Source of the DNA: a virus | Length of the DNA stretch: 19,283 nt | Reading direction: 5' to 3' (one strand) | UHGV virus genome: UHGV-1601451 | Shown: one piece after another, positions 1 to 18,725 of the stretch | How the letters are laid out: each line of letters begins with the position of its first letter | Position numbering within the stretch: the stretch's first letter is position 1 | The notes under the pieces: generated by a model | What the model saw: only the letters and a program-made list of their open reading frames with translations | Databases searched by the model: none | What the model was told of the DNA's origin: nothing | Made by a program: the position numbers and the translations under genes

Positions 1-209
1 TCAATCGATTCAGAGATCTCTAACGCATCATCGACTTCAATGCCCAGATAACGGAATGTGCTTTCCAGTTTCTTATGACCCAACAGAAGTTGAATCACCC
101 GAAGATTCTTGGTCAGCGGACAATAGGTGCAACGCCATATTGAACCCTTAAGACTAAAGTGGACCGATATAGTAAGCGTTACACTGGCCCATTGCCAGCA
201 TCGAAATGC
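1..209 (-). pseudogene. tyrosine recombinase (phage-integrase family) C-terminal fragment; N-terminal part missing; 3' end runs off window start
   Basis: Minus-strand frame is open from 209 down to position 1, bounded upstream by an in-frame TAG at 210-212, with no long minus-strand ORF in 212-447. Translation ...PLTKNLRVIQLLLGHKKLESTFRYLGIEVDDALEISESI has the LLGH-x(6)-T-x-RY box-II pattern around the catalytic Tyr of tyrosine recombinases. Only about 70 codons are present. Confidence 0.5.
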
Positions 210-393
210 CTAAGCTACGAAAACTCTTTGACGGACATAATGTTCCTCATGTTTGCCACATGTCTCCGATTGAGCACAACTATAGTCTGCTGATGAGACT
301 AATTATGGCACTGAGCAGACCTGCTCGCTAGGCGAGATCCGCTGTGAGCGAATTGCAGAGGTCTCGAATATGCTTGATCATAATGCTTGAAGA

Positions 394-399
394 TATAAT
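394..399 (+). promoter_or_regulatory. candidate sigma70 -10 hexamer (TATAAT) upstream of the AT-rich cargo gene; -35 element poor
   Basis: Perfect TATAAT at 394-399 in an AT-rich tract about 90 bp upstream of the 487 start. No good TTGACA at 16-18 bp spacing. Speculative. Confidence 0.25.
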
Positions 400-486
400 T
401 GGTATGAGCCTGAAAATTTATTTTTAAAGAATTATTAAATACTGCCGATGTTAATAATTACACTAAAAAAAAGGAGCATGAAATTT

Positions 487-984
487 ATGTTAAATTTAGA
501 CGAAATGTGCAGCGCATTAAGAAAACAATACTCTATAACGGCTGGTCAAGATGGTGAGAAATATGCTAGTAGATGGCTGGAAAAATCCAAGTGGAAATTT
601 GAACATGTTGAGCAAGGAATAAATACCTTATCTGCAAACTTGAAATCGTATGGGAGGAAACGCCCCGATTTTATTATTGACATTGACGAATCCTCTTATA
701 TTCTTTTAGATGCGAAGTATCACTCAACAGATGGGTGTACCTCCTTTACACTTACTGATTGTGAAATAGGAAAATATAGAGCACTTCAGCAATTCTTAAA
801 AAATGTGTATAGTGATTGTACTTTCGAAGTAGTCTTTATGGTGTTTCCGAAAGAAAAAAATGGTGACGAATTTACATTTGTGAGTCTAGATGAGTTTGAT
901 AAAGGAGAGTGTACGACTCTAGCATCAAAAGATGCAACGAAAATTAGTCTACTCTATCGAGATGACTTATGGTTTAAAAGTTGA
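487..984 (+). CDS. small PD-(D/E)xK nuclease-like protein (restriction-endonuclease / NERD-like core), AT-rich cargo gene
   Basis: ORF in track as 448..984. Start at 487 preferred because AGGAG (472-476) lies 10 nt upstream; the ATG at 478 is only 1 nt from the SD and 448 has no SD. Translation has an acidic helix (GEKYASRWLEK) followed by RPDFIIDID...SSYILLDAKYH, i.e. a D ... D-x-K arrangement with nuclease-like spacing. Codon composition is much more AT-rich than the flanking phage genes. Opposite strand to the late operon. Confidence 0.7.
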   Translation: MLNLDEMCSALRKQYSITAGQDGEKYASRWLEKSKWKFEHVEQGINTLSANLKSYGRKRPDFIIDIDESSYILLDAKYHSTDGCTSFTLTDCEIGKYRALQQFLKNVYSDCTFEVVFMVFPKEKNGDEFTFVSLDEFDKGECTTLASKDATKISLLYRDDLWFKS

Positions 985-1326
985 TTAATAAAAAACAATT
1001 GGCTTTCACCATTTTTAATTACTTTTCCCAGCATGCCGAAAATGTCTCATTTATTTGAATGATTGTATCTTTAATAGATATATCGCGACTATTCCTAAAC
1101 TTATTTCTAGTTGTTAACAAAACTGTGTGCTATGAATGTCTGCTGTTGGCACATAGCAGTTCTAGAGACAGTGGCGTAAAGTCATGGAGAATCGGTGGAA
1201 GGAGGTGCAAACCCTCTCATACAAAAATGCGTAAAATCAGTAACGGCTGGAAATCATTCAATACTCGCACTATCAAAAGTTCACCAGCCAACCGCGACAC
1301 CTCCTGCATACGACATGTCTGCGGTT

Positions 1327-1881
1327 TTATATAACCCTGGCTGGAAACCTCTTATACAAAGTTGACACACCAACATCATAGATAATAGCCACCTTCTGGC
1401 GAGGAACGCCTGATGCAATTAATCGCCCGGCCTGCGCCCATTGTTCTGGTGTAAGTTTGAGACGACGTCCACCAATTCGTCCCTGTGCGCGAGCAGCTTC
1501 CAGTCCAGCTTTTGTTCGTTCAACAATCAGTTCTCGTTCCATTTCAGCCAGGGCACCCATCACATGAAAGAAAAAACGCCCCATCGGTGTGCTGGTATCA
1601 ATAGCATCCGTCAGGCTGCGAAAATTAACGCCACGTTCGCGCAACTCCTCAACCAGAATGACCAGATGCCGCATACTACGCCCCAGCCGATCCAGCTTCC
1701 AGACAACCAGAGTGTCACCTGCCGATAATGTCCTGAGCAGTTTTTTCAGTCCCGGCCTTTCGGACTTTGTGCCGCTTATCTTGTCTTCAAAAATCAGCTC
1801 GCATCCTGCACAGTTCAGCGCATTACGTTGTAGATCTGTGTTCTGGTCATTTGTTGACACACGTACATAGCCAATAAGCAT
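1327..1881 (-). CDS. pin: DNA invertase, serine recombinase of the Gin/Pin/Hin/Cin family
   Basis: Translation from the ATG at 1881, MLIGYVRVSTNDQNTDLQRNAL...VVWKLDRLGRSM...MGRFFFHVMGALAEMERELIVERT...GRIGGR, matches the resolvase/invertase catalytic domain (active-site Ser in RVSTNDQ) plus a C-terminal HTH. AGGGAG SD 7 nt upstream of 1881. The 12-codon extension in the track ORF (to 1917) is not supported. Confidence 0.93.
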   Translation of the reverse strand: MLIGYVRVSTNDQNTDLQRNALNCAGCELIFEDKISGTKSERPGLKKLLRTLSAGDTLVVWKLDRLGRSMRHLVILVEELRERGVNFRSLTDAIDTSTPMGRFFFHVMGALAEMERELIVERTKAGLEAARAQGRIGGRRLKLTPEQWAQAGRLIASGVPRQKVAIIYDVGVSTLYKRFPARVI

Positions 1882-1935: not shown

Positions 1936-1961
1936 TTTTCATAAACGTTGGTTTGGGAGAA
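1936..1961. repeat. gix/hix-like 26-bp recombination crossover site (right site), between invertase start and invertible segment
   Basis: TTTTCATAAACG-TT-GGTTTGGGAGAA: two 12-bp half-sites around a 2-bp core. The inner half-site is a perfect inverted repeat of the inner half-site at 3797-3808. The core TT is the reverse complement of the AA core at 3809-3810. Confidence 0.8.
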
Positions 1962-2300
1962 GCGGCCAAATTGCCTGCGATTAGTGGCTCTTTATCATCA
2001 TCTGGCTGGATAAAAATCCCTGTTATAGAGGGGAAGTCTTTTATTATCCAATGGGGAAGAATCGGACCTTCTGATAGTAAAACTGGTGTTGCAACAGGAA
2101 GTTATCCTATTGCTTTTCCAAATTCTGCATTTATGGCATTTATTGCTGAAAAAACCGCAGTATCCACAGGCCCAATAGGTATTAATTCCTGGGGAGTATC
2201 CGAACTAACAAAAACAGAATTAAAGGCCATTTGTGCTGCAAGGACTATATCAACTTCAGCCGCAACTGAAACAGGTGATTTTCTGGTACTGGGATATTGA
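1950..2300 (+). CDS. alternative tail-fibre C-terminal variable part (Sv'-like), no own start; expressed only after inversion as a fusion to the constant N-terminal part
   Basis: The frame is open through the right crossover site. GGT TTG GGA GAA (GLGE) at 1950-1961 is in frame with the downstream ORF ...AAKLPAISGSL...IIQWGRIG...LVLGY, stop at 2298-2300. The same GLGE codons occur in the minus-strand fibre gene at the left site, so inversion gives an in-frame fusion. Confidence 0.75.
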   Translation, partial: GLGEAAKLPAISGSLSSSGWIKIPVIEGKSFIIQWGRIGPSDSKTGVATGSYPIAFPNSAFMAFIAEKTAVSTGPIGINSWGVSELTKTELKAICAARTISTSAATETGDFLVLGY

Positions 2301-2320
2301 GCTTCCATAAGGATTATAAA

Positions 2321-2770
2321 ATGTCGAGCATAATATACTACAGCTCTATAAATAATGCATTTTACCCTGAGCATTTGAAACAAGAATATATTAAATCTAA
2401 TTCTTTTCCAGCAGATGCAAAACCCGTTAAATATTCTGTTTTCGAAGAATTTGCACTTAAACCAGCACCAGAAGGAAAATACAGGTGCGTTGGTGAAGAT
2501 GGAATGCCATCATGGGCAGATATTCCACCACCAACACATGAGGAACAGATTGCCGCAGCCGAATTGAAAAAGCAGCAATTGATTAACCAGGTCAACGAAT
2601 ACATGAACAGTAAACAATGGCCCGGTAAAGCGGCTATTGGTCGTCTGAAAGGTGAGGAACTGGCGCAATATAATCTGTGGCTGGATTACCTGGACGCACT
2701 GGAAATGGTCGATACTTCCAGTGCTCCAGATATTGAATGGCCTACGCCTCCGGCAGTTCAGGCCAGATGA
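2321..2770 (+). CDS. tail fibre assembly protein (Tfa/U'-like), cognate to the alternative fibre tip
   Basis: MSSIIYYSSINNAFYPEH...DTSSAPDIEWPTPPA has a typical Tfa N-terminus and the conserved C-terminal D-T-S-x-A-P-D-x-x-W-P motif. AAGGA SD 7 nt upstream of the ATG at 2321. The track ORF begins at a TTG at 2297. Confidence 0.8.
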   Translation: MSSIIYYSSINNAFYPEHLKQEYIKSNSFPADAKPVKYSVFEEFALKPAPEGKYRCVGEDGMPSWADIPPPTHEEQIAAAELKKQQLINQVNEYMNSKQWPGKAAIGRLKGEELAQYNLWLDYLDALEMVDTSSAPDIEWPTPPAVQAR

Positions 2771-3344
2771 CATCTGGCGCGGTGCTGGTATCAGTTGCCG
2801 TCACCGCGTCAATGTAATCCAGCACAGCGTTAAGGCGGGTTGTTTCTGTCTGCGTCAGTTTACGTCCGGCCTGCAATTTCAGTTGAATCAGACTGATGGA
2901 AGCCATAGCAGCATCAATCAGATACTGGCGCTGTGCTTCTGCCGCTTCTACTGCGGCGCTATGCTGTGCCTCAGTATCCGTCACCCATTTCTCACCATCC
3001 CATTTATCGTATGGCGTTAATGGGGCGATAGTGGTTGTATTATCAGGGTAATCACCCGGAGCTGTGATTTCTTTTGATTCTCCTGTTTCGGTGCTAAAGA
3101 CGATTTCACCGCGATGGTCTGGCACATATTCCCATGAGTTAAAATCTGCAGAACGGCAGATTGCATAACCAGCTTTGTATGCGCCTGGAGCATCTAAACA
3201 GGAACATGCCGGAATGCCGACACCAACGGCAAGATATTCAGTTGATATGGAAATATATTCCCGTGTTTCACCATCATAATTATAGACAGTAATATTCCCC
3301 GCCTTCGTGGCAATAAACTCGCTATTTAATACAGCGCTATCCAT
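2742..3344 (-). CDS. tail fibre assembly protein (Tfa/U-like), cognate to the currently expressed fibre tip
   Basis: 200 aa ending ...LDYIDAVTATDTSTAPDVIWPELPEA, the conserved Tfa C-terminal motif. Start ATG overlaps the fibre stop (TAATG). Its 3' end overlaps the convergent Tfa' gene by 29 nt. Confidence 0.85.
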   Translation of the reverse strand: MDSAVLNSEFIATKAGNITVYNYDGETREYISISTEYLAVGVGIPACSCLDAPGAYKAGYAICRSADFNSWEYVPDHRGEIVFSTETGESKEITAPGDYPDNTTTIAPLTPYDKWDGEKWVTDTEAQHSAAVEAAEAQRQYLIDAAMASISLIQLKLQAGRKLTQTETTRLNAVLDYIDAVTATDTSTAPDVIWPELPEA

Positions 3345-4099
3345 TATGCAGCCCTCACAATGTAGTTAAATGCGATGTTGCGTGGACGGACACCGAAATA
3401 AGAAGTAACACCATTCATTGTCAAATTTCCAGAGCCAAAAGCGGTAAAACCAGAACCAGCATTAACTGCCGAATCCGCGTTTCTGACAAAGTTTTTGGGA
3501 GGTGAACCGGAGACACCAGCCGAAATATCATCAGCATTACCGCCATTGCCGTGGTGGTTAGTTATCTTTGTTTCCGCCTGCGCCGTCAACAAACCTCGTC
3601 CAGAGTCAACCCCGCGCCCGTCATCCCAGCCGCGAATAAACTCACCACGTAAATCAGGCAATTTATTTGTCGGATAAGCCTTTGCCAGTTCCGGGTATTC
3701 TTCAGCAGAAAAAGCCGCGCCGTTGCATTTCAGCCAGCCTGTTGGCGGAGTGGCGGAAGGCCATGGAACAGGGACACCAACGGGTAATGCAGAGCCTTCT
3801 CCCAAACCAAGGTTTTCGAGAGCCGTTTTCACCGTGCCATCCGATTTGATATCACCAAACGGATTCTTGCGGCTTAACAGCAGCGCACGAAGCGCGGTAA
3901 GCAGCTGGTCGTGCCGCGCCTTCTCCAGGCTGGCACCGGATGCCTCCACAACACTGCAAAGTTCCTCCTGCAACATGTCAAAGTAGTCATCATCCAGATC
4001 GGTGGCAGGTGTGCCGTTCTGGGGGTTACCACGGGTAAAACCGTTCTTACCCGCGCCGAACTTATCCTTCTGCGCGGTTTTCGTATCTATACGATGCAT
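3344..4099 (-). CDS. tail fibre protein: constant N-terminal part fused to variable tip carrying a phage tail-collar domain
   Basis: 251 aa. GGAG SD 6 nt upstream of the ATG at 4099. The tip downstream of the crossover site has PVGVPVPWP...[24 protein letters not shown]...[12 protein letters not shown], matching the tail-collar fibre domain signature. Crossover site lies inside the gene at 3797-3822. Confidence 0.9.
3797..3822. repeat. gix/hix-like 26-bp recombination crossover site (left site), inside the tail-fibre gene
   Basis: TTCTCCCAAACC-AA-GGTTTTCGAGAG. Near-palindromic 12-bp half-sites resembling the TTnnnnnAAACC half-site of Gin/Hin systems. 15 bp are identical to the inverted right site. 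Confidence 0.8.
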
Positions 4100-4102
4100 G
4101 GA

Positions 4103-4687
4103 TTACTCCGGATATTTAAAAATTACGTAGGTATGCGACGGGCAGAGTTTGTTAAGCACACACTCGACAACGGTGTCGCCCCAGATACGCAGTGCGGAAT
4201 CACAGGGATCGCCACATGTCATCCAGGTGGTGTTGGTGGCGGCTGGCATGTTGACCTGCCAGTAATACCGCCATTCCGGCGCATTCACCGCGTCAGTACA
4301 GGCCGATGAGCAGGTGAACGTGCTTTTGTCGTATCGCGTGATGGTGGCGTCTGGTCTGCCCAGGGCAGCAAGCTGTGCAAGGTAAAAATCCTCATTGATG
4401 CCGCCCGCCAGGTTAACCTTCGCATCCAGTCGTTGCTGACGCTGGCGAAGGGTCTGTGTCCCTGCGGGAATACATTCATCCGGCAGGCCGCACAGACGCT
4501 CCCAGCGATTTATCAGTTCGGTGGTGGTGCGCGGATCCAGCTCCCGCATCAGGGCATCCGCACGCTGATGAACGCGGGTTAATGACGGTGCCGCACCGGC
4601 AATCGCCGGATCGCTGGCTGACCACGCCGGACCGGGGGGCAACAGTGCCGACAACAGATGGATGTAATCATCGTTTGTCACGTCCAT
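4103..4687 (-). CDS. tail/baseplate protein, YmfQ / Mu gp48-like (DUF2313 family)
   Basis: 194 aa, immediately upstream of the tail fibre and downstream of the baseplate J-like gene, as in Mu and e14. Recognised by position and overall resemblance. Confidence 0.7.
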
Positions 4688-5736
4688 GAAATCGTCCCCA
4701 GTACCGCCAGTTCATTTTTTGCAATGGAGATATTGTCCGCCGGTGCAAGCAACTGATGGCTGTATTCCCCGTTCGCACCGGAAATCGCCTCACTGATACG
4801 CGACACCTTCAGTTCACCCTGCGGATAACCATCACGCAGCAGGAACGAACGCAACTCGGCGGTGATGGCAGCCCGTATTTCCGGTGTGTCCGGCGTCACG
4901 CGGATATGAAAATCCACTTTATGCGCCACCGGCCTGAATACATACAAATCAGAGCCTGCCACCGGGGCCAGTGGCTCAATGTGTTGTCTTGCCGCCGTTT
5001 CCGTTGATTCTTCCGGAATGGGATTAATCAGGTCACTGCTGGCAATCATCACACCGACAGTCCCCGTTCCCATCCAGTGGCGGTATGTCCATGCACGGGT
5101 AATGCCTGGCACTTCTTTAGCCCAGACAACATAGTCCCCGTCAGCCCCGCCCTGAGGCGTCCAGTAATACCGCTCAATGACGCGGGCGCGCCACGTTTCC
5201 AGCTCTTCAGTATCAAATCCACCTGTCAGAGTGTCTGCCACGCCGGAAGACGGCAGACCATTCACCGGCGTGACCAGGATTAATGACGTACCGTCGTCAG
5301 CATTACCGACCGCTCCTGCACTTGAGCAGGCGATCGGCACGCGCAGGACACCACCGGAGCTGGTTGCATCGGCAGTTGCCGTGTACTGAACCAGGTCATC
5401 GCGCTGAATAACACTCCCGGCGGTCACCTTCAGGCCATCGCTGACACCTTCCCAGCGCATATACCCGCTGGCAGCCGTGGCCCCCTTGCGCGGACACCGT
5501 TTCATCGCAGCATGTCGCGCCAGCCAGGACTCATCGCACAGGTCAGGCAGCATGTTCATTGCCAGATAATCGATGTAACCGTAAACCGTATGCAGCGCCG
5601 CCGCATACACCTTTGCCCGCACGTCTTCATCCATGCGCCGGAGCGTATCGCTGACGTCCAGCCTGGCGAATAAATCGTTACGGAGCATACTGATATTTTC
5701 TGCCAGCGTCGGGCGCTGAAATTCACTGTCCGCCAT
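4678..5736 (-). CDS. baseplate J-like protein (Mu gp47-like)
   Basis: 352 aa in the conserved position between the W-like and gp48-like genes. Small overlap with both neighbours, typical of a tightly packed tail operon. Confidence 0.8.
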
Positions 5737-6151
5737 GCGTTATCGCACTCCACAGATCATCAAAAGAAATCATTACCGGTCCGTCACGACGCCAGAGAGT
5801 GATACTGTTACCCAGTTCATTAATCCCGGTGCGGCGGATATCCAGATCAATACGGGACACCACACCGTCATCAATCATCCATTGCAGGCATTCGCGGATA
5901 TACCCCCTTACCGTCTGCACCAGCTGATTGGTCAGTTTGCCGCGCTGAAGCAGCCACAGCCGGGAGCCGTAACGGTCATTCTGTACCGCAGGCCAGGTAT
6001 CCCCCCACCATCCCATCGGGACGTCGGCATTGTCATCAGGCTCCGCCCGCCGCCAGGTGAACAGGGAAATCACCACGGCGCGGGTCAGCGGATCCAGCGG
6101 TGCGCTGGCGCAGGTGCGTTTACCGTTCACCGTCAGCCACAGTTCCATCAT
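5723..6151 (-). CDS. baseplate protein, Mu gp46 / GP46-family (W-like)
   Basis: 142 aa, positioned between the spike and J-like genes. Overlapping starts and stops with neighbours. Confidence 0.7.
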   Translation of the reverse strand: MMELWLTVNGKRTCASAPLDPLTRAVVISLFTWRRAEPDDNADVPMGWWGDTWPAVQNDRYGSRLWLLQRGKLTNQLVQTVRGYIRECLQWMIDDGVVSRIDLDIRRTGINELGNSITLWRRDGPVMISFDDLWSAITHGGQ

Positions 6152-6696
6152 GCCTCCATCGCTTTATCCGGTTTGTCGGTGTTACTGCCCTGACCGTTCT
6201 CTCTGTGACGATGGCCGTTATAGGCAAGCCGCATCGCTGACATGGTGGTGCCGCCGGAGTCGCACAGGTCTTTCACCTGTCCGGTCACTTCCAGGTCCAT
6301 TTCAAAACGTGCTCTGGGCGCATTGCGAAACGTGATCGTTTTACCTGCACCGTCCACCACGATCCCCTCCCGGGTCAGCGTCACAGACTGCCCCTGATCG
6401 TCATAGACAGCCACCTCCCCCGTCTGCAGCCCTTTCAGGCGGTAGCGCCGGTCCGACACCGTAACAACCACCGCATGAGAACGGTCGCCATCCGGAAACA
6501 ACACCACCGCTTCCGCACCGCTGTTTGCCCTTGCGGTAAAACCGTAGGGTTCAAGATGTTCAACCCCGGCTTTGGGTTCACCGGCAATCAGGGACACATC
6601 CACGGTCTGACATTTCGTGGCGGCACTGATGCTTTTCACCACTGCCCGCCCAATCAGGCCGAGAAGTTGTCGCTGCATGGCTTCAATCGTCCTCAT
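6148..6696 (-). CDS. baseplate assembly protein V-like (central spike), Mu gp45-like
   Basis: 182 aa, N-terminal OB-fold-like region followed by a Gly-rich C-terminus. Start overlaps the hub gene stop. Confidence 0.75.
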   Translation of the reverse strand: MRTIEAMQRQLLGLIGRAVVKSISAATKCQTVDVSLIAGEPKAGVEHLEPYGFTARANSGAEAVVLFPDGDRSHAVVVTVSDRRYRLKGLQTGEVAVYDDQGQSVTLTREGIVVDGAGKTITFRNAPRARFEMDLEVTGQVKDLCDSGGTTMSAMRLAYNGHRHRENGQGSNTDKPDKAMEA

Positions 6697-7775
6697 CAGA
6701 ACGGGTCCTCCTGTACTCTGGCTTTTTTCTTTTTCCGCGCGCCGGGGTCTTCAGGTTCAGGCAGATAAGCATCAGGCGGGCCGACACGGATTTCCGTCAG
6801 GGTGCCGTTCTGGTCCTGAGTAAACGTGACTTCCGAAACAAGCAGTTCGGTATTGTCAAAACCACAGACCGGATCAAAGACAATCACCCGCTGGTTGGGT
6901 TGCCACAGCGTACCGTTACCCTGTCGCCAGCCCTGCACCACATAGGTGGTTTCATCCGTCCGCGCCGCCCGTTGCCGGGCTTCAAAGTCAGCACGCGCAA
7001 TACAGCCTGCCCCCGTAGCCTGCCCTGTCTGCCTGATATACATCGGACGGTAACGGGCAATAAATGCGTCCTCTGTGCGGGCCCGCAGCGCGGTGGTGGT
7101 GGCCTCACCGAAATCATCGTCGTTTCCGGCACGCTGCCCCGCCACCTGGTAAACAGAAAACCGCTCCCGGATACTCTTCTCCGTATCGCAGGAAAGGATG
7201 TTTTCCCCAAGTACCAGCGCGGTATGTGCCCGCGTTGAGCCAATACCACCAATCACCAGCCTGCCGTGCGGGTCGTCGTAAGCCAGCGCCTGCTGCTGAC
7301 CGAGTATTTTGTTGATCACCTCGATCACCGTTTCACCGTGATCAGGCTGGACATCAGGAATAACACCCGACGGCGCACCGCTGTTCACCACCTCAATGCC
7401 GAAAGGCGCAGCAAGCGCCTGCGCAATCTGTACCAGCGATCGTCCGTTAAACTGTGTCGGTTCGGCTGCACAGTCAATCAGGTCAGCGGTCAGACTACGT
7501 CCGGCAATACCGGTGCTGACCGAACGGGCATCGTAACGAACGGGCGTCGCCTCCACCCAGCCGGTGATCACCAGCTCATCACCAATCAGCACCTCCACTT
7601 TTGAACCGTTTTTAATGCGCGACTGAAGCGTGGTAATACCCTCATCTCCCGGCCACTGGCGGGTGATCTCCACACTGAAATCCCGCGCCAGTCGTTCAAC
7701 ACCGGCACCGATGCGCACCGATGTCCAGCCATTCCACTCCCGGCCATTTACCCGTAGCGTGACGTTATCGTTCAT
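6696..7775 (-). CDS. baseplate hub protein, phage late control D-like (Mu gp44/P-like)
   Basis: 359 aa starting MNDNVTLRVNGREWNGWTSVRIG..., typical of the GPD family. ATGA overlap with the upstream DNA circulation gene. Confidence 0.85.
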   Translation of the reverse strand: MNDNVTLRVNGREWNGWTSVRIGAGVERLARDFSVEITRQWPGDEGITTLQSRIKNGSKVEVLIGDELVITGWVEATPVRYDARSVSTGIAGRSLTADLIDCAAEPTQFNGRSLVQIAQALAAPFGIEVVNSGAPSGVIPDVQPDHGETVIEVINKILGQQQALAYDDPHGRLVIGGIGSTRAHTALVLGENILSCDTEKSIRERFSVYQVAGQRAGNDDDFGEATTTALRARTEDAFIARYRPMYIRQTGQATGAGCIARADFEARQRAARTDETTYVVQGWRQGNGTLWQPNQRVIVFDPVCGFDNTELLVSEVTFTQDQNGTLTEIRVGPPDAYLPEPEDPGARKKKKARVQEDPF

Positions 7776-9100
7776 TGCACTGGCACCTTCAGAGGGATCA
7801 CCGGCACAAAGCCGGGATGCGTAATGGCATTACGCCGGATAATGTCCGCGTCACGCGCCGCGTTATCAAACCAGGTCGCCGCCAGCACCAGCGCGGGTAA
7901 AACCTCATCCGGCGTGCGCTGAATGATCCGTGCAGACTGTTCAAGGCGCGTGTTGATATCCGCATTCAGATCTGCTTTCACCCGGCGCAGCGCCAGAAAC
8001 AGCGCATCACTGGTTGTTCGGGACAACTCCTTATCAATTGCCGTATTCAGTGTGTCGCGAATGTCAGTCAGTTCTTCCCACGTCGGCAGGTCAACCGTGC
8101 TTTTCACCGCCGGTGCATTGTTCAGTGCCGGATGCGTGACGGAGGGCCAGCCAGTGCTCTGCGCGGGTGTTGTTGCCTGCCCCACTGCGGCATTCTGCAT
8201 CACCGCGGAAGTTGTTGGCGCAGGCAATCGGGTGACGGCATACGCCGCTTCGCTGATTGCGGTCGTACGAAGGGTGCTGGCAACCACGTTACGCTGCTGC
8301 GTCGCCGTGGCGGTGGTTTTACTGTCCGTTTTCCAGACGCCGCGCGGTTGCAGATCGCTGCCGAGGCTGACACCGGAAAGCGTTTTGATCATGGTGACCA
8401 GGTCGCTGGCGTTACCATAAAGGCGTTTCCCGGTACGCCACATTTTCTGCACCTGCTCAACGAAATTTTTGCCTGACGATGGCGGCGGCAGAAGTACCGA
8501 GATATCCCCCTGCAACAGCCTGGCGGCATCCGATACGGCAGAATCCACCACTTTCATCGCATCAGAAACATACCCAAGCATTGTGCTGGCATTACCGACG
8601 ACGTCGTTCTGCACAAAATCTGCCACGCCATCGATACTGAAACCACTGAAGCTGTCACTGATGCAGTCATCCAGTGCAGAACAGGATGACATCAGCGTCT
8701 GCGCCGTCGCCGCACCTGAAGTGGGGTAAGAGAGTTCTCCCGCTTCGACAAACTTCAGGTCAAAGCGGACAATACGCCCTTCACTCTTCGATGTGCTGAC
8801 CCGAACTTCCCCGTCAACACAGACTTTCAGCTCACCGTAAGTCGGATGGACAAGTGTGCCGGGACCGGGTTTATTCAGCGCGTCAATCAGGCGATCGCGC
8901 TGGTCAAAGCAGTCATCTCCCACCACATAAGCTGTGATGGACGGGCGGAAAGTGATTTTCCCCAGGTCTTCGGTATAGGGTTTGTCGCGGTTCGGGTATT
9001 CGTGCGTTTCCACACGACGACCGGTTCCCGCACTTTCTTCTTCAACCTTAAACGGCACACCGCGAAATGACGCGTCCTGAAGTCTGTCTTTCCACGTCAT
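7772..9100 (-). CDS. DNA circulation protein (Mu N-like)
   Basis: Contains MTWKDRLQDASFRGVPF... near the N-terminus. Start placed at the ATG at 9100 (GGAG SD 5 nt upstream); the track ORF begins at 9142 with no SD, and its first 14 codons overlap a terminator-like hairpin. Confidence 0.8.
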   Translation of the reverse strand: MTWKDRLQDASFRGVPFKVEEESAGTGRRVETHEYPNRDKPYTEDLGKITFRPSITAYVVGDDCFDQRDRLIDALNKPGPGTLVHPTYGELKVCVDGEVRVSTSKSEGRIVRFDLKFVEAGELSYPTSGAATAQTLMSSCSALDDCISDSFSGFSIDGVADFVQNDVVGNASTMLGYVSDAMKVVDSAVSDAARLLQGDISVLLPPPSSGKNFVEQVQKMWRTGKRLYGNASDLVTMIKTLSGVSLGSDLQPRGVWKTDSKTTATATQQRNVVASTLRTTAISEAAYAVTRLPAPTTSAVMQNAAVGQATTPAQSTGWPSVTHPALNNAPAVKSTVDLPTWEELTDIRDTLNTAIDKELSRTTSDALFLALRRVKADLNADINTRLEQSARIIQRTPDEVLPALVLAATWFDNAARDADIIRRNAITHPGFVPVIPLKVPVQ

Positions 9101-9115
9101 ATAAACTCCGTACAT

Positions 9116-9137
9116 AAAAAATCCCACCGGAGTGGGA
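9116..9137 (-). terminator. short hairpin followed by T6 (intrinsic-terminator-like) between tape measure stop and DNA circulation start
   Basis: Minus strand reads TCCCAC-TCCG-GTGGGA followed by TTTTTT. Stem is only 6 bp, so at most a weak or partial terminator. Confidence 0.3.
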
Positions 9138-9160
9138 CTCATTAACAGATTAATTTTTCA

Positions 9161-10996
9161 TTACCTGCCAAAGCGCGTATAGCCAACATCATGGCTGACA
9201 TCAAAACCGCTGGATCGCGTTTCCATAACCCGCATACCCGGAGGCGAATTCACAAAAGAGACCTTGATCTCACCATCAACTTTTGGCGCAGAAGCTTTGT
9301 TAATCATGAAGGGATTCGGGCCTGTGGCATCGGAGGCGTTGTTTGACTGAGCCGGATCTACCGCCTGATAAGGTGTGTATCCCCGTGCCGGTATTCCCGT
9401 CCCATAAGCATCATAAGCACCCGCGCCCCACTGCGCAGAGTTAATGACATCGACCGTGTCACCGGAACTGTCGGTAAACCACTCAATAATTGGCTTCAGC
9501 TTGTCCCACATATCCTGAAACCACTTAACAACCGGTCCCCAGTTATTGATTACCATCCCCAGCGGCGACCAGGCAAAAACCTTCTTCAGAAGTTCCCAGC
9601 CAGCCTCAAAATAAGGACCAATGGTTTCCCAGAGCTTCTTGAAATAAGGTCCGACAACATCCCAGTTAGTGATAATTAATCCCGCAGCCAGGGCTATCGC
9701 CGTCGCAATCATTCCAATCGGCGTCATCGACATGATCCTGCTGACAATACTGATGGCACCGCCAACGCCCATCAATCCCAGTTTCAGAATCGCAAAACCG
9801 GCAGCAAGCCCGACGACGCCGCGAATAACCCGGGGATTTTCATCCGCAAACTTCGTGAATTTTTCCCCTAACTCCCCCAGCCATTGCGTGATATTTTTGG
9901 CGTCACCAGAAAATGCGCCGCCAATAGCCGCAAGGCCGTTAGTTGCGGTCCCCGTCATTGCCTCCCACAGGTTGGACAGCGTACCAAGCTGGGCCTGAAC
10001 ACGTTTATTCAGGCTGGCCTGTTTATTCATCTTCTGCTGGATCTGATCGTAACCATCTTTTCCTTTATCGATCAGAGCATTGACCACCTGAAGGGTTTCA
10101 GCATCATCACCAAATATTGCCTTAAGTACACCGGTTCGCTTAACGTCGGTCAGTTTTCGCAGCTTTGCCAGTTGCCTGAACATGTTATCAAGACCGCCAA
10201 AACTCCCTTTGCCGTCAGTAAAATCGAGCTGCACTCCGAGTTTCTGGCGGGCCATGACTTTATTGACGTCCCTGATTTTCTTAACGCTTAATCCGGACTG
10301 GATAACTTTTCGCAGGGCATTACCTGCCGACTCCCCGTTCATCCCCATCTGATCCATCATGACGCTGATAGGGGCAAGGCTCTGTGCAGCCTGAAGACCG
10401 TCCTTATTCACCATCTTCAGAACAGAACTGGTTTTAGTGAAGAAGGACAACATGTTGGTATCGTCAACGCCCAGATAAAACGCCTTCTGGATAGTGTCGA
10501 ACAGCCCCATCATGTCTTCTGACGCCGTTCCGGTAGCATCCTGCATCTTTGCAGCAAACTCAGCAGCCGCTTCTGGTGTTTTTTTCAGTTGTACCGCAAG
10601 ATAAGCTGTCGCTTTACCCACACCACCCAGAATGTTTTCTGCCGGGATCCCCTGACGCACCAGCATCTGCATCATGTTCTGGAAATCAGCCGTTGTACCG
10701 GGTAGCTGGTTACCCAGGCCAATAGCCAGTTTATTGATGTCCTGAAAGCGCTTTCCAACCTCGCCGTTCGCATCCATCATGGCGACTTTCAGCCCGGTGG
10801 CGGCGTTTTCCTGATCGGCATAAGATTTCAGGGAAAGCGTCAGACCCGCTGCCAGTCCGCCACCAAGCGCCAGCCCACCCTGTGACGCTTCTTCCGCCTG
10901 GCGTTTAAATCCCCGGATTTTCTTTTGCATTTTCGACAGCGCCGGAGAAAGCCTGTCGACACCGGTGATCAACGCCTTAAGCTCAAATTCAGCCAT
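9161..10996 (-). CDS. tail tape measure protein
   Basis: 611 aa, helical and Ala/Gly/Leu-rich with a Trp-rich C-terminal region. Located directly after the frameshifted chaperone pair and before the baseplate genes. Confidence 0.85.
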   Translation of the reverse strand: MAEFELKALITGVDRLSPALSKMQKKIRGFKRQAEEASQGGLALGGGLAAGLTLSLKSYADQENAATGLKVAMMDANGEVGKRFQDINKLAIGLGNQLPGTTADFQNMMQMLVRQGIPAENILGGVGKATAYLAVQLKKTPEAAAEFAAKMQDATGTASEDMMGLFDTIQKAFYLGVDDTNMLSFFTKTSSVLKMVNKDGLQAAQSLAPISVMMDQMGMNGESAGNALRKVIQSGLSVKKIRDVNKVMARQKLGVQLDFTDGKGSFGGLDNMFRQLAKLRKLTDVKRTGVLKAIFGDDAETLQVVNALIDKGKDGYDQIQQKMNKQASLNKRVQAQLGTLSNLWEAMTGTATNGLAAIGGAFSGDAKNITQWLGELGEKFTKFADENPRVIRGVVGLAAGFAILKLGLMGVGGAISIVSRIMSMTPIGMIATAIALAAGLIITNWDVVGPYFKKLWETIGPYFEAGWELLKKVFAWSPLGMVINNWGPVVKWFQDMWDKLKPIIEWFTDSSGDTVDVINSAQWGAGAYDAYGTGIPARGYTPYQAVDPAQSNNASDATGPNPFMINKASAPKVDGEIKVSFVNSPPGMRVMETRSSGFDVSHDVGYTRFGR

Positions 10997-11407
10997 GTGT
11001 GCGTTTCTCCTGCTCTATCCTGTTTGCCTGACTGACCAGCAAGGGAATTTCACTGATCGGCATATTCAGCAATTCGAAGGGATTAATGCGCCAGTAACTG
11101 GCGCAGTCAAAGAAGCGATCAGTGAGGTATTCAGCCGTCAGGCCTGGAGGAAAAAACCAGCCACAAGCCACGCCGCTGCATTCAGGTCTGCCGGAGACAT
11201 CTGGTCGACAGAGCTTTGCGGCACTTTCGCCAGCCGCACAATGTATTTCGACACCACATGCGCCAGAAGTCTGACGGACTCATCCTGATTCATCTGGTAA
11301 GGATACCCCAGCTCGCGGACATCCTTCCCGGTGGGTTCATCAAACTCCAGTACGGAGAGTGTCTCGCCATGAGCGATAATCGGTTTCTTTAACTCAAGCT
11401 CTTTCAT
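10989..11407 (-). CDS. tail assembly chaperone, long form produced by -1 programmed ribosomal frameshift
   Basis: Slippery heptamer T-TTT-TTC on the minus strand (plus coords 11150-11156). The -1 frame continues as FFPPGLTAEYLTDRFFDCASYW...EKRTHG and stops at 10989, overlapping the tape measure start. Same architecture as the lambda G/GT and P2 E/E' chaperone pairs. Confidence 0.7.
11138..11407 (-). CDS. tail assembly chaperone, short (in-frame) form
   Basis: 89 aa ending ...AAWLVAGFFLQA, directly upstream of the tape measure. Contains the slippery heptamer near its 3' end. Confidence 0.8.
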   Translation of the reverse strand: MKELELKKPIIAHGETLSVLEFDEPTGKDVRELGYPYQMNQDESVRLLAHVVSKYIVRLAKVPQSSVDQMSPADLNAAAWLVAGFFLQA

Positions 11408-11763
11408 TACTGGTAATCCCCTTCTTCACCGTGGAACTCAAGATCAACCGTGCCTTCTTCGGCATTATGGTTCGCTTCGCCGTGCACCCAGGCTGACGAC
11501 AATACATAGACCTGACCGTTCGCCAGCTCAGCAGTGATGGTCATCTCATCAGACGAGGTGATTTTGCTCACAGGAAAATTCTTCGGCACCTTGAAGGTCC
11601 CTTTAACATAGGGCGCACGGTGAGTTTCCTTGCGGTCCACTGAACCGTCCAGGCCGATGATGTCATCATTGACCGTCCTGTTCATGGGCACCTCAATGCC
11701 GCCGGTCAGCGATAGCTGCTGACCGTCAATTTTGAAATAACAGGTTCCCCCGATACGGGCCAT
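11407..11763 (-). CDS. tail tube protein (Mu-type)
   Basis: 118 aa, immediately downstream of the sheath gene with overlapping stop and start. Confidence 0.8.
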   Translation of the reverse strand: MARIGGTCYFKIDGQQLSLTGGIEVPMNRTVNDDIIGLDGSVDRKETHRAPYVKGTFKVPKNFPVSKITSSDEMTITAELANGQVYVLSSAWVHGEANHNAEEGTVDLEFHGEEGDYQ

Positions 11764-13259
11764 TATGCAGACTCCTCTGAATACTGAAGACGGAACTGGT
11801 TAACCACGGCAAAGACACGCAACTGGTTAACATAGTCAGGCGGGAACAGCGTGTTCAGGCGGTTCGGATCGCTGGCATCACGCTCCACAACCAGGTACTG
11901 CTTGAACAGTTCGTAGTTTTCCACGATCCCCGCACGCTCGAGCTGACGGTAGGTTGCCAGCAGTTCCCCTTTGATCACTGCCGGGGTGACAATCGCCTGA
12001 CCGGGACCAAAGCGGGTACCGTCACTGGCAAGCTTGTGACGCCCGTACTTACTGGTAATGACGGATTTCAGTTTGCGCAGTACATACGCGCTGGTATGCA
12101 ACGTCTCGCTGTCGAGGTAGCTGTTATCCGCAACCCCGTAAGCGTTTTTCCTGTACGTGGTGACATCACGCTGAATGCGCAGTACCCCGCTTTCGACATA
12201 CGCCGTTGCCACGCCATGAGACAGCAGGGTCTGTTGTTCGGTCATCGTGAACCGTTTCCCCTTCGGCGCAGGCAGCATACCCACCAGCTCACCGGTCTGC
12301 GTGGGACGTGCCGGATCGTTGCGGATAAACACCGCTGCGCGGGCGGTACGGCTTGCCGCCAGCTCATCGGCAGGCGTCTGGGTGTCTTTTTCGTACCCCG
12401 CCAGGGTAATGTGCTGCTGGTTAAACTGGTCACCTGCGGTCACCAGTTCTGACAGCGTGCCGATCTTTGCCGTATACACATGGCCATACAGCTGACGCGC
12501 ATAGCTCCAGCGACCGCTGGTATCGTTCATCTCGGTCACCAGCGTGTTAAGGGAGGCCGTGTCGTTGAACGGCAGACCGATATAATCAAACGGCTCATCC
12601 GCCATTGCAGCCACCGCGCCGGTGAGAACCGGAGCGCCCGTTCCGGCGGTCCCCGCCGCCACGGCAATCTGTACGCCCGCAGGCAGCACTTCTCCCCCAC
12701 CGAAGCCGTAGTAATTGAGGCTGACAGGAATTTCATTCCCGCAAAGCCCCTTATGACGCGCGGTCAGTGTGACCACGCCAGCCGAAGATGAGGCCGTAAA
12801 CGGCAGGGCCGGAACGGCATTGATGGCATCCTGGATACTGCTGGCAATCGTCGCGACGTTATCGCCGTTGGTCACCGGTGCCTGCACGCGGGTACGTCCC
12901 ACATAAACATTCACCGTGCCGGTTTCGGTTGCCGCGCCGGTCACCGTCAGCGTAACTGTTGCCGCCGCGCCCGTGGATTCAGGAACGGCAATCACATACA
13001 GTTCACCAAACGGGTCGGTCTGGCGATAAGCCTCGACCATACGCGCCAGCTGACTTCCCGCACCACAAATCTGGCGTGCATAGTCTGCCGATGGCATCAG
13101 CACCAGACTGTTGGCAACAATCTCTGCACCGTTATTGGCATGACCAATCAGCAGCGATGCCCCGCTGTCCTGTGCAGTATTCGCCGCCTGGTTATCCATT
13201 TCCGCATAAAACAGCGGAACCAGCGTATTCGACGGAATGGTGTTAAAGCTTATCGTCAT
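11763..13259 (-). CDS. contractile tail sheath protein (Mu-type)
   Basis: 498 aa starting MTISFNTIPSNTLVPLFYAEMDN..., characteristic of Mu-family sheath proteins. Followed by the tube gene. Confidence 0.9.
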   Translation of the reverse strand: MTISFNTIPSNTLVPLFYAEMDNQAANTAQDSGASLLIGHANNGAEIVANSLVLMPSADYARQICGAGSQLARMVEAYRQTDPFGELYVIAVPESTGAAATVTLTVTGAATETGTVNVYVGRTRVQAPVTNGDNVATIASSIQDAINAVPALPFTASSSAGVVTLTARHKGLCGNEIPVSLNYYGFGGGEVLPAGVQIAVAAGTAGTGAPVLTGAVAAMADEPFDYIGLPFNDTASLNTLVTEMNDTSGRWSYARQLYGHVYTAKIGTLSELVTAGDQFNQQHITLAGYEKDTQTPADELAASRTARAAVFIRNDPARPTQTGELVGMLPAPKGKRFTMTEQQTLLSHGVATAYVESGVLRIQRDVTTYRKNAYGVADNSYLDSETLHTSAYVLRKLKSVITSKYGRHKLASDGTRFGPGQAIVTPAVIKGELLATYRQLERAGIVENYELFKQYLVVERDASDPNRLNTLFPPDYVNQLRVFAVVNQFRLQYSEESA

Positions 13260-13413
13260 CGGTATTCACCTTTTTATTCACGCGCCGGATATCACCCGCT
13301 GCTTCACGGCGCAGCCAGTAGTTGTTCTCATCAACATTTCGCCCTTCGGCGGGCAAAAGGTCGCCGCGGGCAGGGTCAGGAACTGACCGCCCTTTAACAG
13401 GTTTGACAAACAT
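13243..13413 (-). CDS. small hypothetical protein (56 aa), not in the supplied ORF track
   Basis: ATG at 13413 preceded by GAGGA (5-nt spacer) overlapping the upstream gene stop. Translation MFVKPVKGRSVPDPARGDLLPAEGRNVDENNYWLRREAAGDIRRVNKKVNTDDDKL, stop at 13243-13245. It fills the otherwise non-coding 160-bp gap and overlaps the sheath start by 17 nt. Confidence 0.5.
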   Translation of the reverse strand: MFVKPVKGRSVPDPARGDLLPAEGRNVDENNYWLRREAAGDIRRVNKKVNTDDDKL

Positions 13414-13421
13414 GAGGATCC

Positions 13422-13982
13422 TCAGGAAGGAAGGGTTATTTCGGTGTGATGTTCGATATCGCCGTCAGGCCCGTTACCGGGCTCGAGATAATCAACATCA
13501 ATCGCCAGCGTTTGCAGTTCATCCAGACTGTTCAGATCATCCTGCTGGCGGGTATCGTCTTCAGTCAGCTCGCTGATGACCGAAAAATCGAACTGATAAA
13601 TCAGCTCATGACGATTCAGATCCAGCAGCGTGCCGCCGTCATAGGTAATCGGGTTACCGCACGCCTCCGGGTTCCAGCCCAGCAGAGCCTTAAAGAGCAT
13701 CTGCCGGACATCGTCAACCACATCATACGAGGCAAACTGACCGCGCTCATCACGCCCGTTACTCAGTATGACAACCACGGAGAAACCCTCTTTCAGCTCC
13801 TGCCAGTAGTCGGTCTGGCTTTTGTTTTCTCCCGGAGAATCATCACCCGGTACAACATATGCCGCCGGGAGTTTCAGCTTTCCGACCTCCGGCAGATTTT
13901 TGAACTGGGCCGCGCCTGCAACCCGGTTTTCAAAATACGGACAGCGGGCACGCAGTGCAGCAATAACAGGCGTCAGTTTCAT
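13422..13982 (-). CDS. neck / tail-completion protein (Mu gp37-like family, tentative)
   Basis: 186 aa, acidic, between the head-tail connector genes and the sheath. 4-nt overlap with the upstream gene. Family assignment by position only. Confidence 0.5.
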   Translation of the reverse strand: MKLTPVIAALRARCPYFENRVAGAAQFKNLPEVGKLKLPAAYVVPGDDSPGENKSQTDYWQELKEGFSVVVILSNGRDERGQFASYDVVDDVRQMLFKALLGWNPEACGNPITYDGGTLLDLNRHELIYQFDFSVISELTEDDTRQQDDLNSLDELQTLAIDVDYLEPGNGPDGDIEHHTEITLPS

Positions 13983-14485
13983 CTGTGTCGTCGCTCCGGC
14001 TTCAGTGATTTACGCAATTCCCGCGCCAGAAAATAGCGTGTCCAGCTGCGGTTCTTTTCAAGCGTTTCCACCATAAAGTTATTACGTGGAGCCAGTCGCC
14101 AGCCGCTGCCACCGGATGCACCACGATGATGGCTGCGACGACGCTTTGCTCCTCCCCGGACACCAAAAAACAGAAACGCCGGATAGAAGTCACCAGAGAT
14201 CATCCGGTTCCCCTTCCCGTTGCGCTGGTTAGGGGCAATGCGTGTCATAAAACCGGCTCGCTTTTTACTGGCTCCCGGCACCATGTAACCAATCGAACGA
14301 GCCAGGCGTCCGGTCTGATAACCGGGGTTTTCACCCGGTGCCGACCGCGCACGGCGCATCACCAGCCGACGGGCATCACGCATATGACGCTGCCCAATCG
14401 TGACAAACGCCCGCCGGACACGGGCGCGGTTAAAGCGCATCTCGGCGGGCTGCTGAACATCAACGTGAAAAAAGGAAGTCGCCAT
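13979..14485 (-). CDS. virion morphogenesis / tail-completion protein (tentative)
   Basis: 168 aa, strongly basic (Arg-rich). Packed with overlaps between its neighbours in the connector cluster. Confidence 0.5.
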   Translation of the reverse strand: MATSFFHVDVQQPAEMRFNRARVRRAFVTIGQRHMRDARRLVMRRARSAPGENPGYQTGRLARSIGYMVPGASKKRAGFMTRIAPNQRNGKGNRMISGDFYPAFLFFGVRGGAKRRRSHHRGASGGSGWRLAPRNNFMVETLEKNRSWTRYFLARELRKSLKPERRHR

Positions 14486-14870
14486 TGTTGCCTCCGTGAC
14501 TCTGCGTAAATTCGCCCAGCTCCGTACATTCCAGCAGCAGAAAGCGCCGCGCCCCGTTCAGATCGCGCTGACGTTTTACCCGGTACACACTATCACCGCA
14601 GACCACCTCATAATCAGCGGTGATCCCCCGGCGGTAACGAATGGTGATGTAATGGGTGATGGCGTCCCCGGTCTGCGCGGTTTCCTGCCTGGTGGTGGCA
14701 CTGGTCTGGATAACCTTCGCCCATGTCCGGAACGTAACCGGGTATTGAGGCTCCACGCCAAAGTTATCCGCGGGCATATCCACCCGCAGGCGGATCAGGA
14801 CGCGTTTATTCAGTTCACCGGGGTCCGGCAGAATGTAGGTTGCGCTGGTCTGCGCCTGACGAATTTTCAT
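14460..14870 (-). CDS. head-tail adaptor / head closure protein (tentative)
   Basis: 136 aa, in the connector cluster downstream of the gp6-like gene. ATGA-type overlap with the upstream gene. Confidence 0.5.
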   Translation of the reverse strand: MKIRQAQTSATYILPDPGELNKRVLIRLRVDMPADNFGVEPQYPVTFRTWAKVIQTSATTRQETAQTGDAITHYITIRYRRGITADYEVVCGDSVYRVKRQRDLNGARRFLLLECTELGEFTQSHGGNNGDFLFSR

Positions 14871-15190
14871 TGCGGAAAGTACCTGTACGGGCCGACAAGC
14901 CAGCCAAAACTCTGCGGCATGTCGAGTTTCTCCACTTCCGTAACCGACGAGCGGTTTTCGTAAAAATGGCTGATAAGCATCAGCATCCCCAGACGAATAT
15001 CATCCGGCAGGTGCAGCCCGTCCGGATCGCTGTCCGGAATGGTTTCATCCGGTGCATAGAGCTTCCGGTTCAGATACGTTTCCGTCCGCTTTTGTGCCGC
15101 ACATGCCAGCAGTTGCAGATGGCGGTCATCAGTATCGAAATCCTCATCCAGCCGGAGTTGGGCTTTAATCTCTTCCATTGTCAGAAGCAT
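14867..15190 (-). CDS. head-tail connector protein, gp6-like
   Basis: 107 aa, MLLTMEEIKAQLRLDEDFDTDD..., typical of the small gp6-like connector family that follows capsid genes. Confidence 0.6.
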   Translation of the reverse strand: MLLTMEEIKAQLRLDEDFDTDDRHLQLLACAAQKRTETYLNRKLYAPDETIPDSDPDGLHLPDDIRLGMLMLISHFYENRSSVTEVEKLDMPQSFGWLVGPYRYFPQ

Positions 15191-15192
15191 AC

Positions 15193-15393
15193 TCAGCCCT
15201 CTTTACTGGTCGTGGCTTTTTTCTCTTTTGCCGCTTTACTGCTTTTTGCACTGATTCCGCGCTCTGCTAACCCGGCCTGAAGTGCAATCTCCTGCACCCG
15301 GGCAGGAAGCGCCCCGTCGTCATACTCACCGGCCCGAATGACCTCAACACGCATACCGTCCGGTGACCATTTCAGATCTTGTTTCAGGATCAT
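15193..15393 (-). CDS. small hypothetical protein (66 aa), Lys/Ala-rich C-terminus
   Basis: Tightly packed between the capsid gene and the connector gene. Function unknown. Confidence 0.45.
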   Translation of the reverse strand: MILKQDLKWSPDGMRVEVIRAGEYDDGALPARVQEIALQAGLAERGISAKSSKAAKEKKATTSKEG

Positions 15394-15415
15394 GATTCTT
15401 CACCCGTCAGAACAG

Positions 15416-15435
15416 GGGGCGCGGTTCCGCGCCCC
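15416..15435 (-). terminator. GC-rich stem-loop just downstream of the major capsid gene (no U-tract)
   Basis: GGGGCGC ... GCGCCCC perfect inverted repeat, 8-11 nt after the capsid stop. Not followed by a T-run on the transcribed strand, so more likely an attenuator or stability element than a full terminator. Confidence 0.35.
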
Positions 15436-15442
15436 TGAGTGA

Positions 15443-16648: not shown

Positions 16649-16662
16649 CGTATTTCTCCTGA

Positions 16663-18714: not shown

Positions 18715-18725
18715 AATTACCTCAG

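Follow-up and report, generated by a model that had tools for sequence, protein, structure and literature searches.

Here we describe a small gene near one end of an e14-like E. coli prophage, beside its invertase gene, in the virus genome UHGV-1601451; the whole 19,283-nt stretch of DNA that we analyzed is referred to below as the window. The gene, at 487-984 on the plus strand, encodes a 165-residue protein (WP_023351493.1, labelled 'hypothetical protein' in RefSeq) that is probably a minimal, stand-alone, metal-dependent endonuclease of the PD-(D/E)xK superfamily. It is carried by an AT-rich cassette that has its own leader and ribosome-binding site and is separate from the phage life-cycle modules. 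From DNA comparisons, this cassette appears to have entered accessory ('moron') slots of several unrelated prophages by horizontal exchange. The nuclease family is uncharacterised, unnamed, and outside the current defence catalogues. Its fold and its genomic contexts make the gene a reasonable candidate phage-defence gene: as prophage cargo expressed in the lysogen, it may cut incoming foreign nucleic acid and so act as a single-gene exclusion or defence nuclease, a reading whose chances we judge to be about even.

The protein reads ...DGEKYASRWLEK...YGRKRPDFIIDIDESSYILLDAKYH..., with its motifs in the order DGEKYASRWLEK, KRPDFII, and ILLDAKYH. A preliminary description of this DNA, made from the letters alone, had pointed to an acidic helix followed by RPDFIIDID and ILLDAKY as the signature of a restriction-endonuclease fold; these motifs are indeed present, and the E...PD...DxK arrangement is conserved family-wide. 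When 1.84 billion cluster representatives were searched exhaustively with a profile, 155 clusters were found at E ≤ 1e-3, nearly all of them stand-alone proteins of 160-210 residues; 62 relatives from these clusters were used for the alignment and all family-wide scans. E24, D61, and K77 are invariant in this alignment, where identity to the window protein falls to about 20%, and D75 is conserved in 61 of the 62 sequences. G20, G23, K58, R59, P60, D75, and E93 are at least 90% conserved. Among 20 close homologues, the invariant residues are P60, D61, D75, K77, Y78, H79, E93, K96, and Y97.

The AlphaFold2 model of the protein (mean predicted local distance difference test score, pLDDT, 81; predicted template modelling score, pTM, 0.78) has the alpha-beta-beta-beta-alpha-beta core of the superfamily, formed in order by helix 23-33, strands 38-40, 62-67, and 70-79, helix 91-107, and strand 112-121. 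The catalytic arrangement, an acidic residue in helix 1, an Asp where strand 2 starts, and (D/E)-x-K in strand 3, is found in the sequence and at the modelled positions: helix 23-33 contains E24, strand 62-67 has D61 at its start, and strand 70-79 contains D75-A-K77, with E93 and Y97 in helix 91-107. When the model was compared to the PDB with Foldseek, the Holliday-junction resolvases Hjc and Hje came first, followed by HincII, EcoRV, and DpnI; a structure search of BFVD yielded viral Hjc-like proteins. Because the modelled positions and the structure searches agree, they confirm the restriction-endonuclease-like core that the preliminary description had proposed. Judged from the model, the nuclease core resembles Hjc and YraN, and E24, D61, and D75-x-K77 are the candidate active-site residues. 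Two additions to the minimal core are seen: residues 47-55 form a further helix, and residues 128-154 extend the C-terminus as beta-alpha-beta-beta. Model quality is poor for the first 21 residues, yet they contain a conserved LRKQ motif.

A single long open reading frame (ORF) covers 448-984 on the plus strand. Its functional start is the ATG at 487, 10 nt past the Shine-Dalgarno sequence AGGAG at 472-476; this is the sole ATG kept in all six aligned homologous cassettes, and it coincides with the start of the RefSeq coding sequence. Both the AGGAG and a TATAAT at 394-399 had been picked out in the preliminary description and lie at those positions; the TATAAT is exact in three of the six cassettes. 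Between homologues, identity is 80-91% at codon positions 1 and 2 and 64-75% at position 3; in the leader it is 0.56-0.73, close to the level of third codon positions, and across both flanks it is 0.51-0.73. Given that the flanks diverge about as much as position 3 while positions 1 and 2 are conserved, the protein is under purifying selection and the flanks are merely co-transferred. The cassette flanks contain no conserved small ORFs and no Rfam match, and the 3' tail (985-1140) has no significant RNA fold (folding z-score -0.65).

DNA similarity between the window and other loci bearing a homologue is limited to about 338-1140. In BLAST comparisons, the similarity spans 338-1123 in Citrobacter amalonaticus, 381-1143 in a P2-like prophage of Rahnella, 338-1140 in a viral contig, and 420-975 in an E. 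coli prophage integrated at icd. Because similarity stops at about 338 and about 1140, the mobile unit consists of a leader of ~150 nt, the coding sequence, and a trailer of ~155 nt. The leader (338-486, plus strand) is non-coding and AT-rich, includes the TATAAT and the Shine-Dalgarno sequence, and travels with the gene, its homology to the Citrobacter, Rahnella, and viral-contig copies beginning between 338 and 381; the non-coding tail (985-1140, plus strand) loses homology to the other contexts at 1123-1143. The sharp drop in GC content that had been noticed between the recombinase remnant and the invertase gene is real: values are 0.31 in the leader, 0.35 in the coding sequence, and 0.29 in the tail, compared to 0.50 in the invertase gene and 0.56 in the late genes at 4103-19283. 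With this deviant composition, borders at 338 and 1140, and other cargo at the same place in two related prophages, that of strain GF3-3 and e14, the element has the features of a moron or accessory cassette. The preliminary description had delimited it as 212-1326, a span wider than the gene; the gene is 487-984, the transferable cassette about 338-1140 (~0.8 kb), and the variable slot 114-1326.

Read from the left, the window begins, in its first 2 kb, with an integrase remnant on the minus strand, a change from AT-poor to AT-rich DNA, the plus-strand ORF, a 343-bp spacer, and a convergent invertase gene. The remnant, the left flank of the slot, is what is left of a tyrosine integrase gene, its final ~32 codons (1-98, coding 3-98, minus strand), with the stop codon just beyond the window edge. 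The right flank is a serine DNA invertase gene of the pinE type (1327-1881, minus strand; Pfam Resolvase 8.5e-52 plus HTH_7; annotated pinE), 93% identical to pinE of the E. coli prophage e14. In K-12, the e14 gene order is ymfQ-stfP-tfaP-tfaE-stfE-pinE-mcrA-attR; DNA homology between the window and e14 ends exactly at the pin stop codon (1326), where mcrA and attR come next in e14. In the sister prophage of E. coli strain GF3-3, homology stops at 110-113 and restarts at 1138, and unrelated cargo lies between the same flanks. The order pinE-mcrA-attR, the break at 1326, and the alternative cargo in GF3-3 bear out the earlier suggestion that this slot is the equivalent of the mcrA slot in e14. 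When the slot is compared across related prophages, as had been proposed, its cargo varies: the pin-adjacent end of e14-type prophages is a cargo-swapping slot, and in K-12 it holds mcrA, in 13 genomes the nuclease cassette, and in GF3-3 the gene for an unrelated, membrane-like protein of 208 residues.

The window protein belongs to no named family: nothing passes the thresholds of Pfam, NCBIfam, or PADLOC, just as the preliminary description had been unable to assign it by eye. Searches of PDB sequences with the single sequence or a profile gave nothing significant; the best sensible profile alignment (E 0.07) pairs KRPDF...(I/L)DAKY of the window protein with the catalytic stretch KPDYVV...LDAKY of McrC. 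The nearest sequence resemblance is to the nuclease domains of RmuC and McrC. Residues 17-108 align to RmuC (E 0.0038), with a score of 16.8 bits that is below the Pfam gathering cut-off of 26, and RmuC membership was rejected for this reason; two of the 62 relatives, one of them the window protein, match RmuC at E ≤ 0.01, and a further relative outside the set, P0037, scores 17.2 bits. McrBC (McrC) membership was rejected as well (11.4 bits vs 23.9), and no other gene, such as one for an McrB GTPase, lies beside the nuclease gene within the slot. The window protein also differs from these systems in having neither an McrB partner nor the N-terminal coiled-coil of RmuC.

Other assignments were tried and rejected. 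A resemblance to NERD-type domains, raised in the preliminary description, did not hold up, as there is no Pfam NERD match at E ≤ 1 for the window protein and none among the 62 relatives. By sequence, the protein is not an Hjc-type resolvase; no match was found at E ≤ 1 for the window protein or at E ≤ 0.01 for the 62 relatives, and no Hjc chain appeared in the PDB profile search. A type II restriction-modification system was rejected too, since neither in the window nor in six further contexts is there a methyltransferase gene next to that of the nuclease; a dcm/vsr pair in locus L012 is 4 kb from the nuclease homologue, with housekeeping-type genes between. Among the 62 relatives, there are isolated weak matches to DpnII, PDDEXK_7, REase_II, HYExAFE, the YraN-type model PRK14681, and, in one member, GapS1. 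In PHROGs, all 62 fall in phrog_28481, labelled 'unknown function'. Longer relatives (P0021, P0025, P0031, P0037, P0129, and others) have no informative extra domains. None of five family accessions is present in the DefensePredictor supplements. The furthest that public annotation goes is an automatic UniProt label on the Rahnella member, 'PD-(D/E)XK endonuclease-like domain-containing protein'.

The cassette is rare. Of 5,426 complete E. coli genomes, 4,404 have a match of the pin type and 13 have the version of the slot that holds the nuclease; the nuclease family as a whole is found in 16 (with the ORF at full length in 15 of the 16). No member was detected in 50,697 records of deposited phage genomes.

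Several copies of the gene lie in defence-rich neighbourhoods. A 69%-identical E. coli homologue directly follows the integrase gene in a lambdoid prophage that occupies icd, where e14 also attaches; next to it are genes for an AAA_21/AAA_15 ATPase and an HNH protein, with matches to Septu PtuA (E 5e-195; PtuA/PtuB) and PDC-M01B. The chromosome of E. coli UPEC_U013 is the same as the window (99.9-100% identity) apart from a flipped tail-fibre segment, and there a Ppl system (Gao_Ppl; L001 9134-11887) lies directly past the integrase remnant, left of window position 1; it is composed of a PHP-domain protein of 202 residues and a TrlF-type ATPase of 712 residues that is split into two ORFs. Because Ppl directly adjoins the remnant, the cassette stands at the junction of the prophage end and a small defence island. 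In a viral contig (L022), a homologue is accompanied by two TIR proteins, one ThsB-like and one an effector, and by a DUF3800 protein, and an Acinetobacter copy follows what by eye appears to be a type III restriction-modification pair. In the P2-like element L023 (4712-5997, 8154-8498), a copy lies between gpA and the portal gene, in the gpA-gpQ hotspot; it is cut to 114 codons, with an ORF from 8154 and, by eye in the cassette alignment, an in-frame stop near codon 39. The P2 gpA-gpQ hotspot is a reservoir of defence systems (Rousset et al., PMC9122126). The Rahnella homologue lies between tail genes S and V of its P2-like prophage, antisense to the late operon.

Looking for genes that accompany the nuclease, we found no conserved partner; 14 neighbour proteins from 11 loci show no similarity to one another. 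In some distant relatives, the upstream gene abuts or overlaps the nuclease gene, and these upstream genes are mutually unrelated.

The selected, intact active site, the AT-rich cassette, its polymorphism in at least three prophage types, the adjacency to defence systems, and the position of mcrA in e14 together lead us to favour a role in defence or exclusion. The cassette-borne nuclease would be expressed from the prophage of a lysogen and would cut foreign nucleic acid as it enters; that the window gene is expressed in the lysogen, that its product is active as a nuclease, and that it may protect are inferences from fold and context. Because there is no methylase, partner gene, or recognisable sensor, discrimination of self from non-self would have to come from the substrate or from activation at the time of infection. 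In the first case, the host would be spared through DNA modification (as with McrA), through DNA structure (branched intermediates, in keeping with the Hjc-like fold), or through the rarity of a target sequence; in the second, the nuclease would become active only during infection. Uncharacterised genes at defence loci are often protective: six of eight such loci, chosen at random from the defence hotspot of P4 satellites, protected on testing (PMC13586616). GAPS1, described below, is a precedent for a defence made up of one PD-(D/E)xK protein.

The layout of the cassette is similar to that of the phage morons and of P2/P4 hotspot cargo, which likewise are AT-rich, have their own leader, run against the late genes, and lie between conserved phage genes; copies of the nuclease occur in both the gpA-gpQ and the S-V positions (PMC9122126). 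It differs from phage morons in having no clear sigma-70 -35 element or intrinsic terminator, and none of the latter was found on the plus strand of 985-1326. The preliminary description had placed the gene opposite the late operon, and the late genes of the window are indeed on the minus strand; the gene is better described as convergent with pin, and is opposite the late operon only in that sense.

The closest positional parallel is McrA of e14, a type IV restriction enzyme of the HNH class with a domain that reads 5-methylcytosine. McrA occupies the same position as the window nuclease, directly past pinE at the prophage end, and both are single accessory nuclease genes with no methylase. 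In contrast, mcrA is co-directional with pin whereas the window gene is convergent with it, and the window protein has a PD-(D/E)xK fold and no HNH match.

Several observations weigh against a role in defence. With regard to expression in the lysogen, the TATAAT at 394-399 has no acceptable -35 hexamer and was not picked up by a consensus promoter scan, so that a promoter is plausible, not demonstrated, and there are no grounds for calling it strong. The nuclease has no obvious sensor or specificity domain. The isoelectric point (pI) is 5.1 for the window protein and below 7 for 89% of the 62 relatives, whose median is 5.5; so acidic a family is odd for a DNA-junction binder, and the median value casts indirect doubt on dimer formation and junction binding of the Hjc type. 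Codon 57 (655-657), four positions ahead of D61, encodes Arg in the window allele (GRKRPDF), in place of the Gly of all other close relatives (GGKRPDF); the exact R57 allele is present on 79 contigs, and the position is variable in distant relatives. A check against PADLOC-DB v2.0.0, as had been proposed, gave no model match at E ≤ 1 for the window protein and two chance-level matches among the 62 relatives. Location in hotspots is compatible with anti-defence or other accessory genes too. Three homologues lie not beside defence genes but 1-1.5 kb from umuD-umuC (L012 8859-11481, L030 7001-9369, and L014 8920-11732, in Citrobacter, a metagenomic enterobacterial prophage, and Pseudoalteromonas), with dinI near two of them and an SRAP gene near one. 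Finally, we found no paper that mentions WP_023351493, and keyword searches gave no study of the nuclease family.

One alternative is that the protein is an abortive-infection effector like GAPS1, inactive in the lysogen and switched on by a phage protein or state to degrade nucleic acid indiscriminately, leading to dormancy or death; we consider this unlikely. GAPS1 (GapS1, from Vibrio GMT islands) is a validated single-protein PD-(D/E)xK defence in which the active site is essential, the T7 capsid protein is the trigger, and the outcome is dormancy (bioRxiv 10.1101/2023.03.28.534373). Like the window nuclease, it is a single gene on mobile elements. One of the 62 relatives weakly matches the NCBIfam GapS1 model (E 8.9e-5), and the poorly modelled but conserved N-terminal 21 residues with the LRKQ motif could be a regulatory tail. 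On the other hand, GAPS1 is more than twice as long, and its nuclease is at the C-terminus (D313, K328), with an active site at 313-328 that follows a long N-terminal part presumed to sense the phage; at 165 residues, the window protein is almost all core. It has no match to the GapS1 model (NF047931), and membership of GAPS1 was rejected on these grounds.

Alternatively, the nuclease could be an accessory to DNA repair or recombination, a structure-specific endonuclease that resolves Holliday junctions or other branched DNA to aid the prophage or its host. The best structural matches are the resolvases Hjc, Hje, and RecU, and one relative weakly matches PHROG 843, 'Holliday junction resolvase'. 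The three umuDC loci, from different taxa, also count in favour of this alternative; this proximity could reflect a genuine link to SOS and translesion cargo or merely shared accessory regions. These contexts are not all independent, because two of the three have homologous DNA (the third is arranged differently). The window protein differs from Hjc/Hje, and likewise from RecU and YraN/UPF0102, in sequence and in its added helix 47-55 and 128-154 extension, and it is not a member by sequence of the Hjc, RecU, or RusA families. Resolvases are generally basic, whereas this family is acidic. The gene lies in variable end slots and other prophage cargo slots, not in recombination modules; sister prophages do without it, and none of the 50,697 deposited phage genomes has it. 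Taken together, these points make a repair function rather improbable.

Very unlikely, in our view, is a selfish, free-standing cassette resembling a homing endonuclease, which would cut cassette-free alleles and be copied into them at no benefit to the host. The insertion contexts (the int/icd junction, P2 S-V, P2 gpA-gpQ, and the pin end) are not homologous and the flanks are unrelated in five contexts, so there is no common homing target site; moreover, the cassette is rare (16 of 5,426 genomes) and does not sweep related prophages, and a repeated motif at its borders is not significant. Least probable of all is an anti-defence factor that destroys immune nucleic acid of the host or a competitor to the benefit of the carrier phage: variable regions of phage genomes can hold anti-defence genes too (PMC9122126, introduction), but the minus-strand late genes of the window run away from the nuclease gene, which has its own leader, and the Rahnella copy is likewise antisense to its late operon. 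This is the layout of cargo expressed in the lysogen and not that of early anti-defence genes. We know of no PD-(D/E)xK anti-defence protein that has been described.

A bolder version of the defence reading is that this acidic, sensor-less, Hjc-like mini-nuclease of 165 residues is, as a single gene, an entire anti-phage system that belongs to a new family. It would recognise invaders by DNA structure, for example branched intermediates of replication or recombination, or by a modification, with no dedicated sensor domain, and would move as a 0.8-kb plug-in among defence slots in prophages of the P2-like, lambdoid, and e14/Mu-tailed types; we think it doubtful that all of this will prove true. 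If the nuclease does protect, it would be among the smallest self-contained nuclease defences and a tractable model of self/non-self discrimination by a bare PD-(D/E)xK core that has no methylase, partner, or sensor. If it does not, it is an example of an unnamed nuclease family of 155 metagenomic clusters that databases label just 'hypothetical'. Nuclease genes of uncharacterised function are often met with in prophage hotspots, and nothing so far implies a new principle.

Turning to the other features of the slot, the recombinase remnant on the left had been recognised in the preliminary description, and by eye it carries the C-terminal catalytic-Tyr box of a tyrosine integrase: the translation of 3-98 on the minus strand reads ...IQLLLGHKKLESTFRYLGIEVDDALEISESI, with the stretch ...LLGHKKLESTFRYLGIEVDDALEISESI. 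RefSeq places the coding sequence WP_015364432.1 here, and the matching region of strain IZSBS22 includes a feature annotated as 'integrase'. Between the remnant and the cassette, 114-337 has no recognised feature and in E. coli is found only alongside the cassette; blastn matches of 100-345 are confined to the same 13 genomes, with no homology to cassette copies in other species. The spacer beside pin (1141-1326) is common to GF3-3, which carries other cargo, and not to e14.

Short repeated motifs were seen around the cassette. Copies of a ATGTCTGCTGTTG-like motif at 260, 283, 1136, and 1315 were considered as border repeats and rejected, as there are 10 in the window compared to 5.8 expected, and 17 of 200 shuffles reach 10. 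GTCYGCTGNTG-like copies, to which the same window-wide count of 10 against 5.8 applies, lie close to either border of the cassette and next to the stop codon of pin (260-295, 336-348, 1136-1148, and 1315-1327), and a ATGCCGATAAT-like 11-mer, from the consensus of the aligned cassettes, occurs on both sides of the coding sequence at about 441-451 and 1031-1041. A LexA box in the leader, an idea taken from the umuDC neighbours, was also rejected; by eye, the candidate CTG-N11-CAG at 342-358 is off by one.

Some of the related loci carry further cargo. The slot of GF3-3 encodes the 208-residue protein WP_000721149.1 (L008 6494-7120), which has a hydrophobic N-terminus and no Pfam or PADLOC match, and a DUF4365 protein gene (L008 4674-5669) that adjoins the integrase remnant is, like it, a further candidate for slot cargo. 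In Rahnella, a 329-residue protein of no assigned family, with a weak DUF3226 match, is encoded just upstream of the homologue in the same orientation (L009 6844-7833); by eye, its E-A-K-W stretch resembles another motif of the restriction-endonuclease type, and it may be a second cargo nuclease. The hotspot of L023 also encodes a 169-residue protein and a 259-residue protein that by eye is nucleotidyltransferase-like. In UPEC_U013, the gene for the autotransporter toxin Vat lies 5 kb further on from Ppl.

Beyond its first 2 kb, the window carries the late genes of a myovirus prophage whose tail is of the Mu/e14 type, among them those for Gp48/YmfQ, baseplate J, a DNA circularisation protein, the tape measure, the sheath, and an HK97-type capsid. 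Outside the cassette, the invertible tail-fibre segment (1943-3815), which is under the control of pin, has a 20-nt inverted repeat at either end (1943-1962 and 3796-3815). Its orientation in the window is opposite to that in UPEC_U013, and this flip suggests that the invertase is, or recently was, active.

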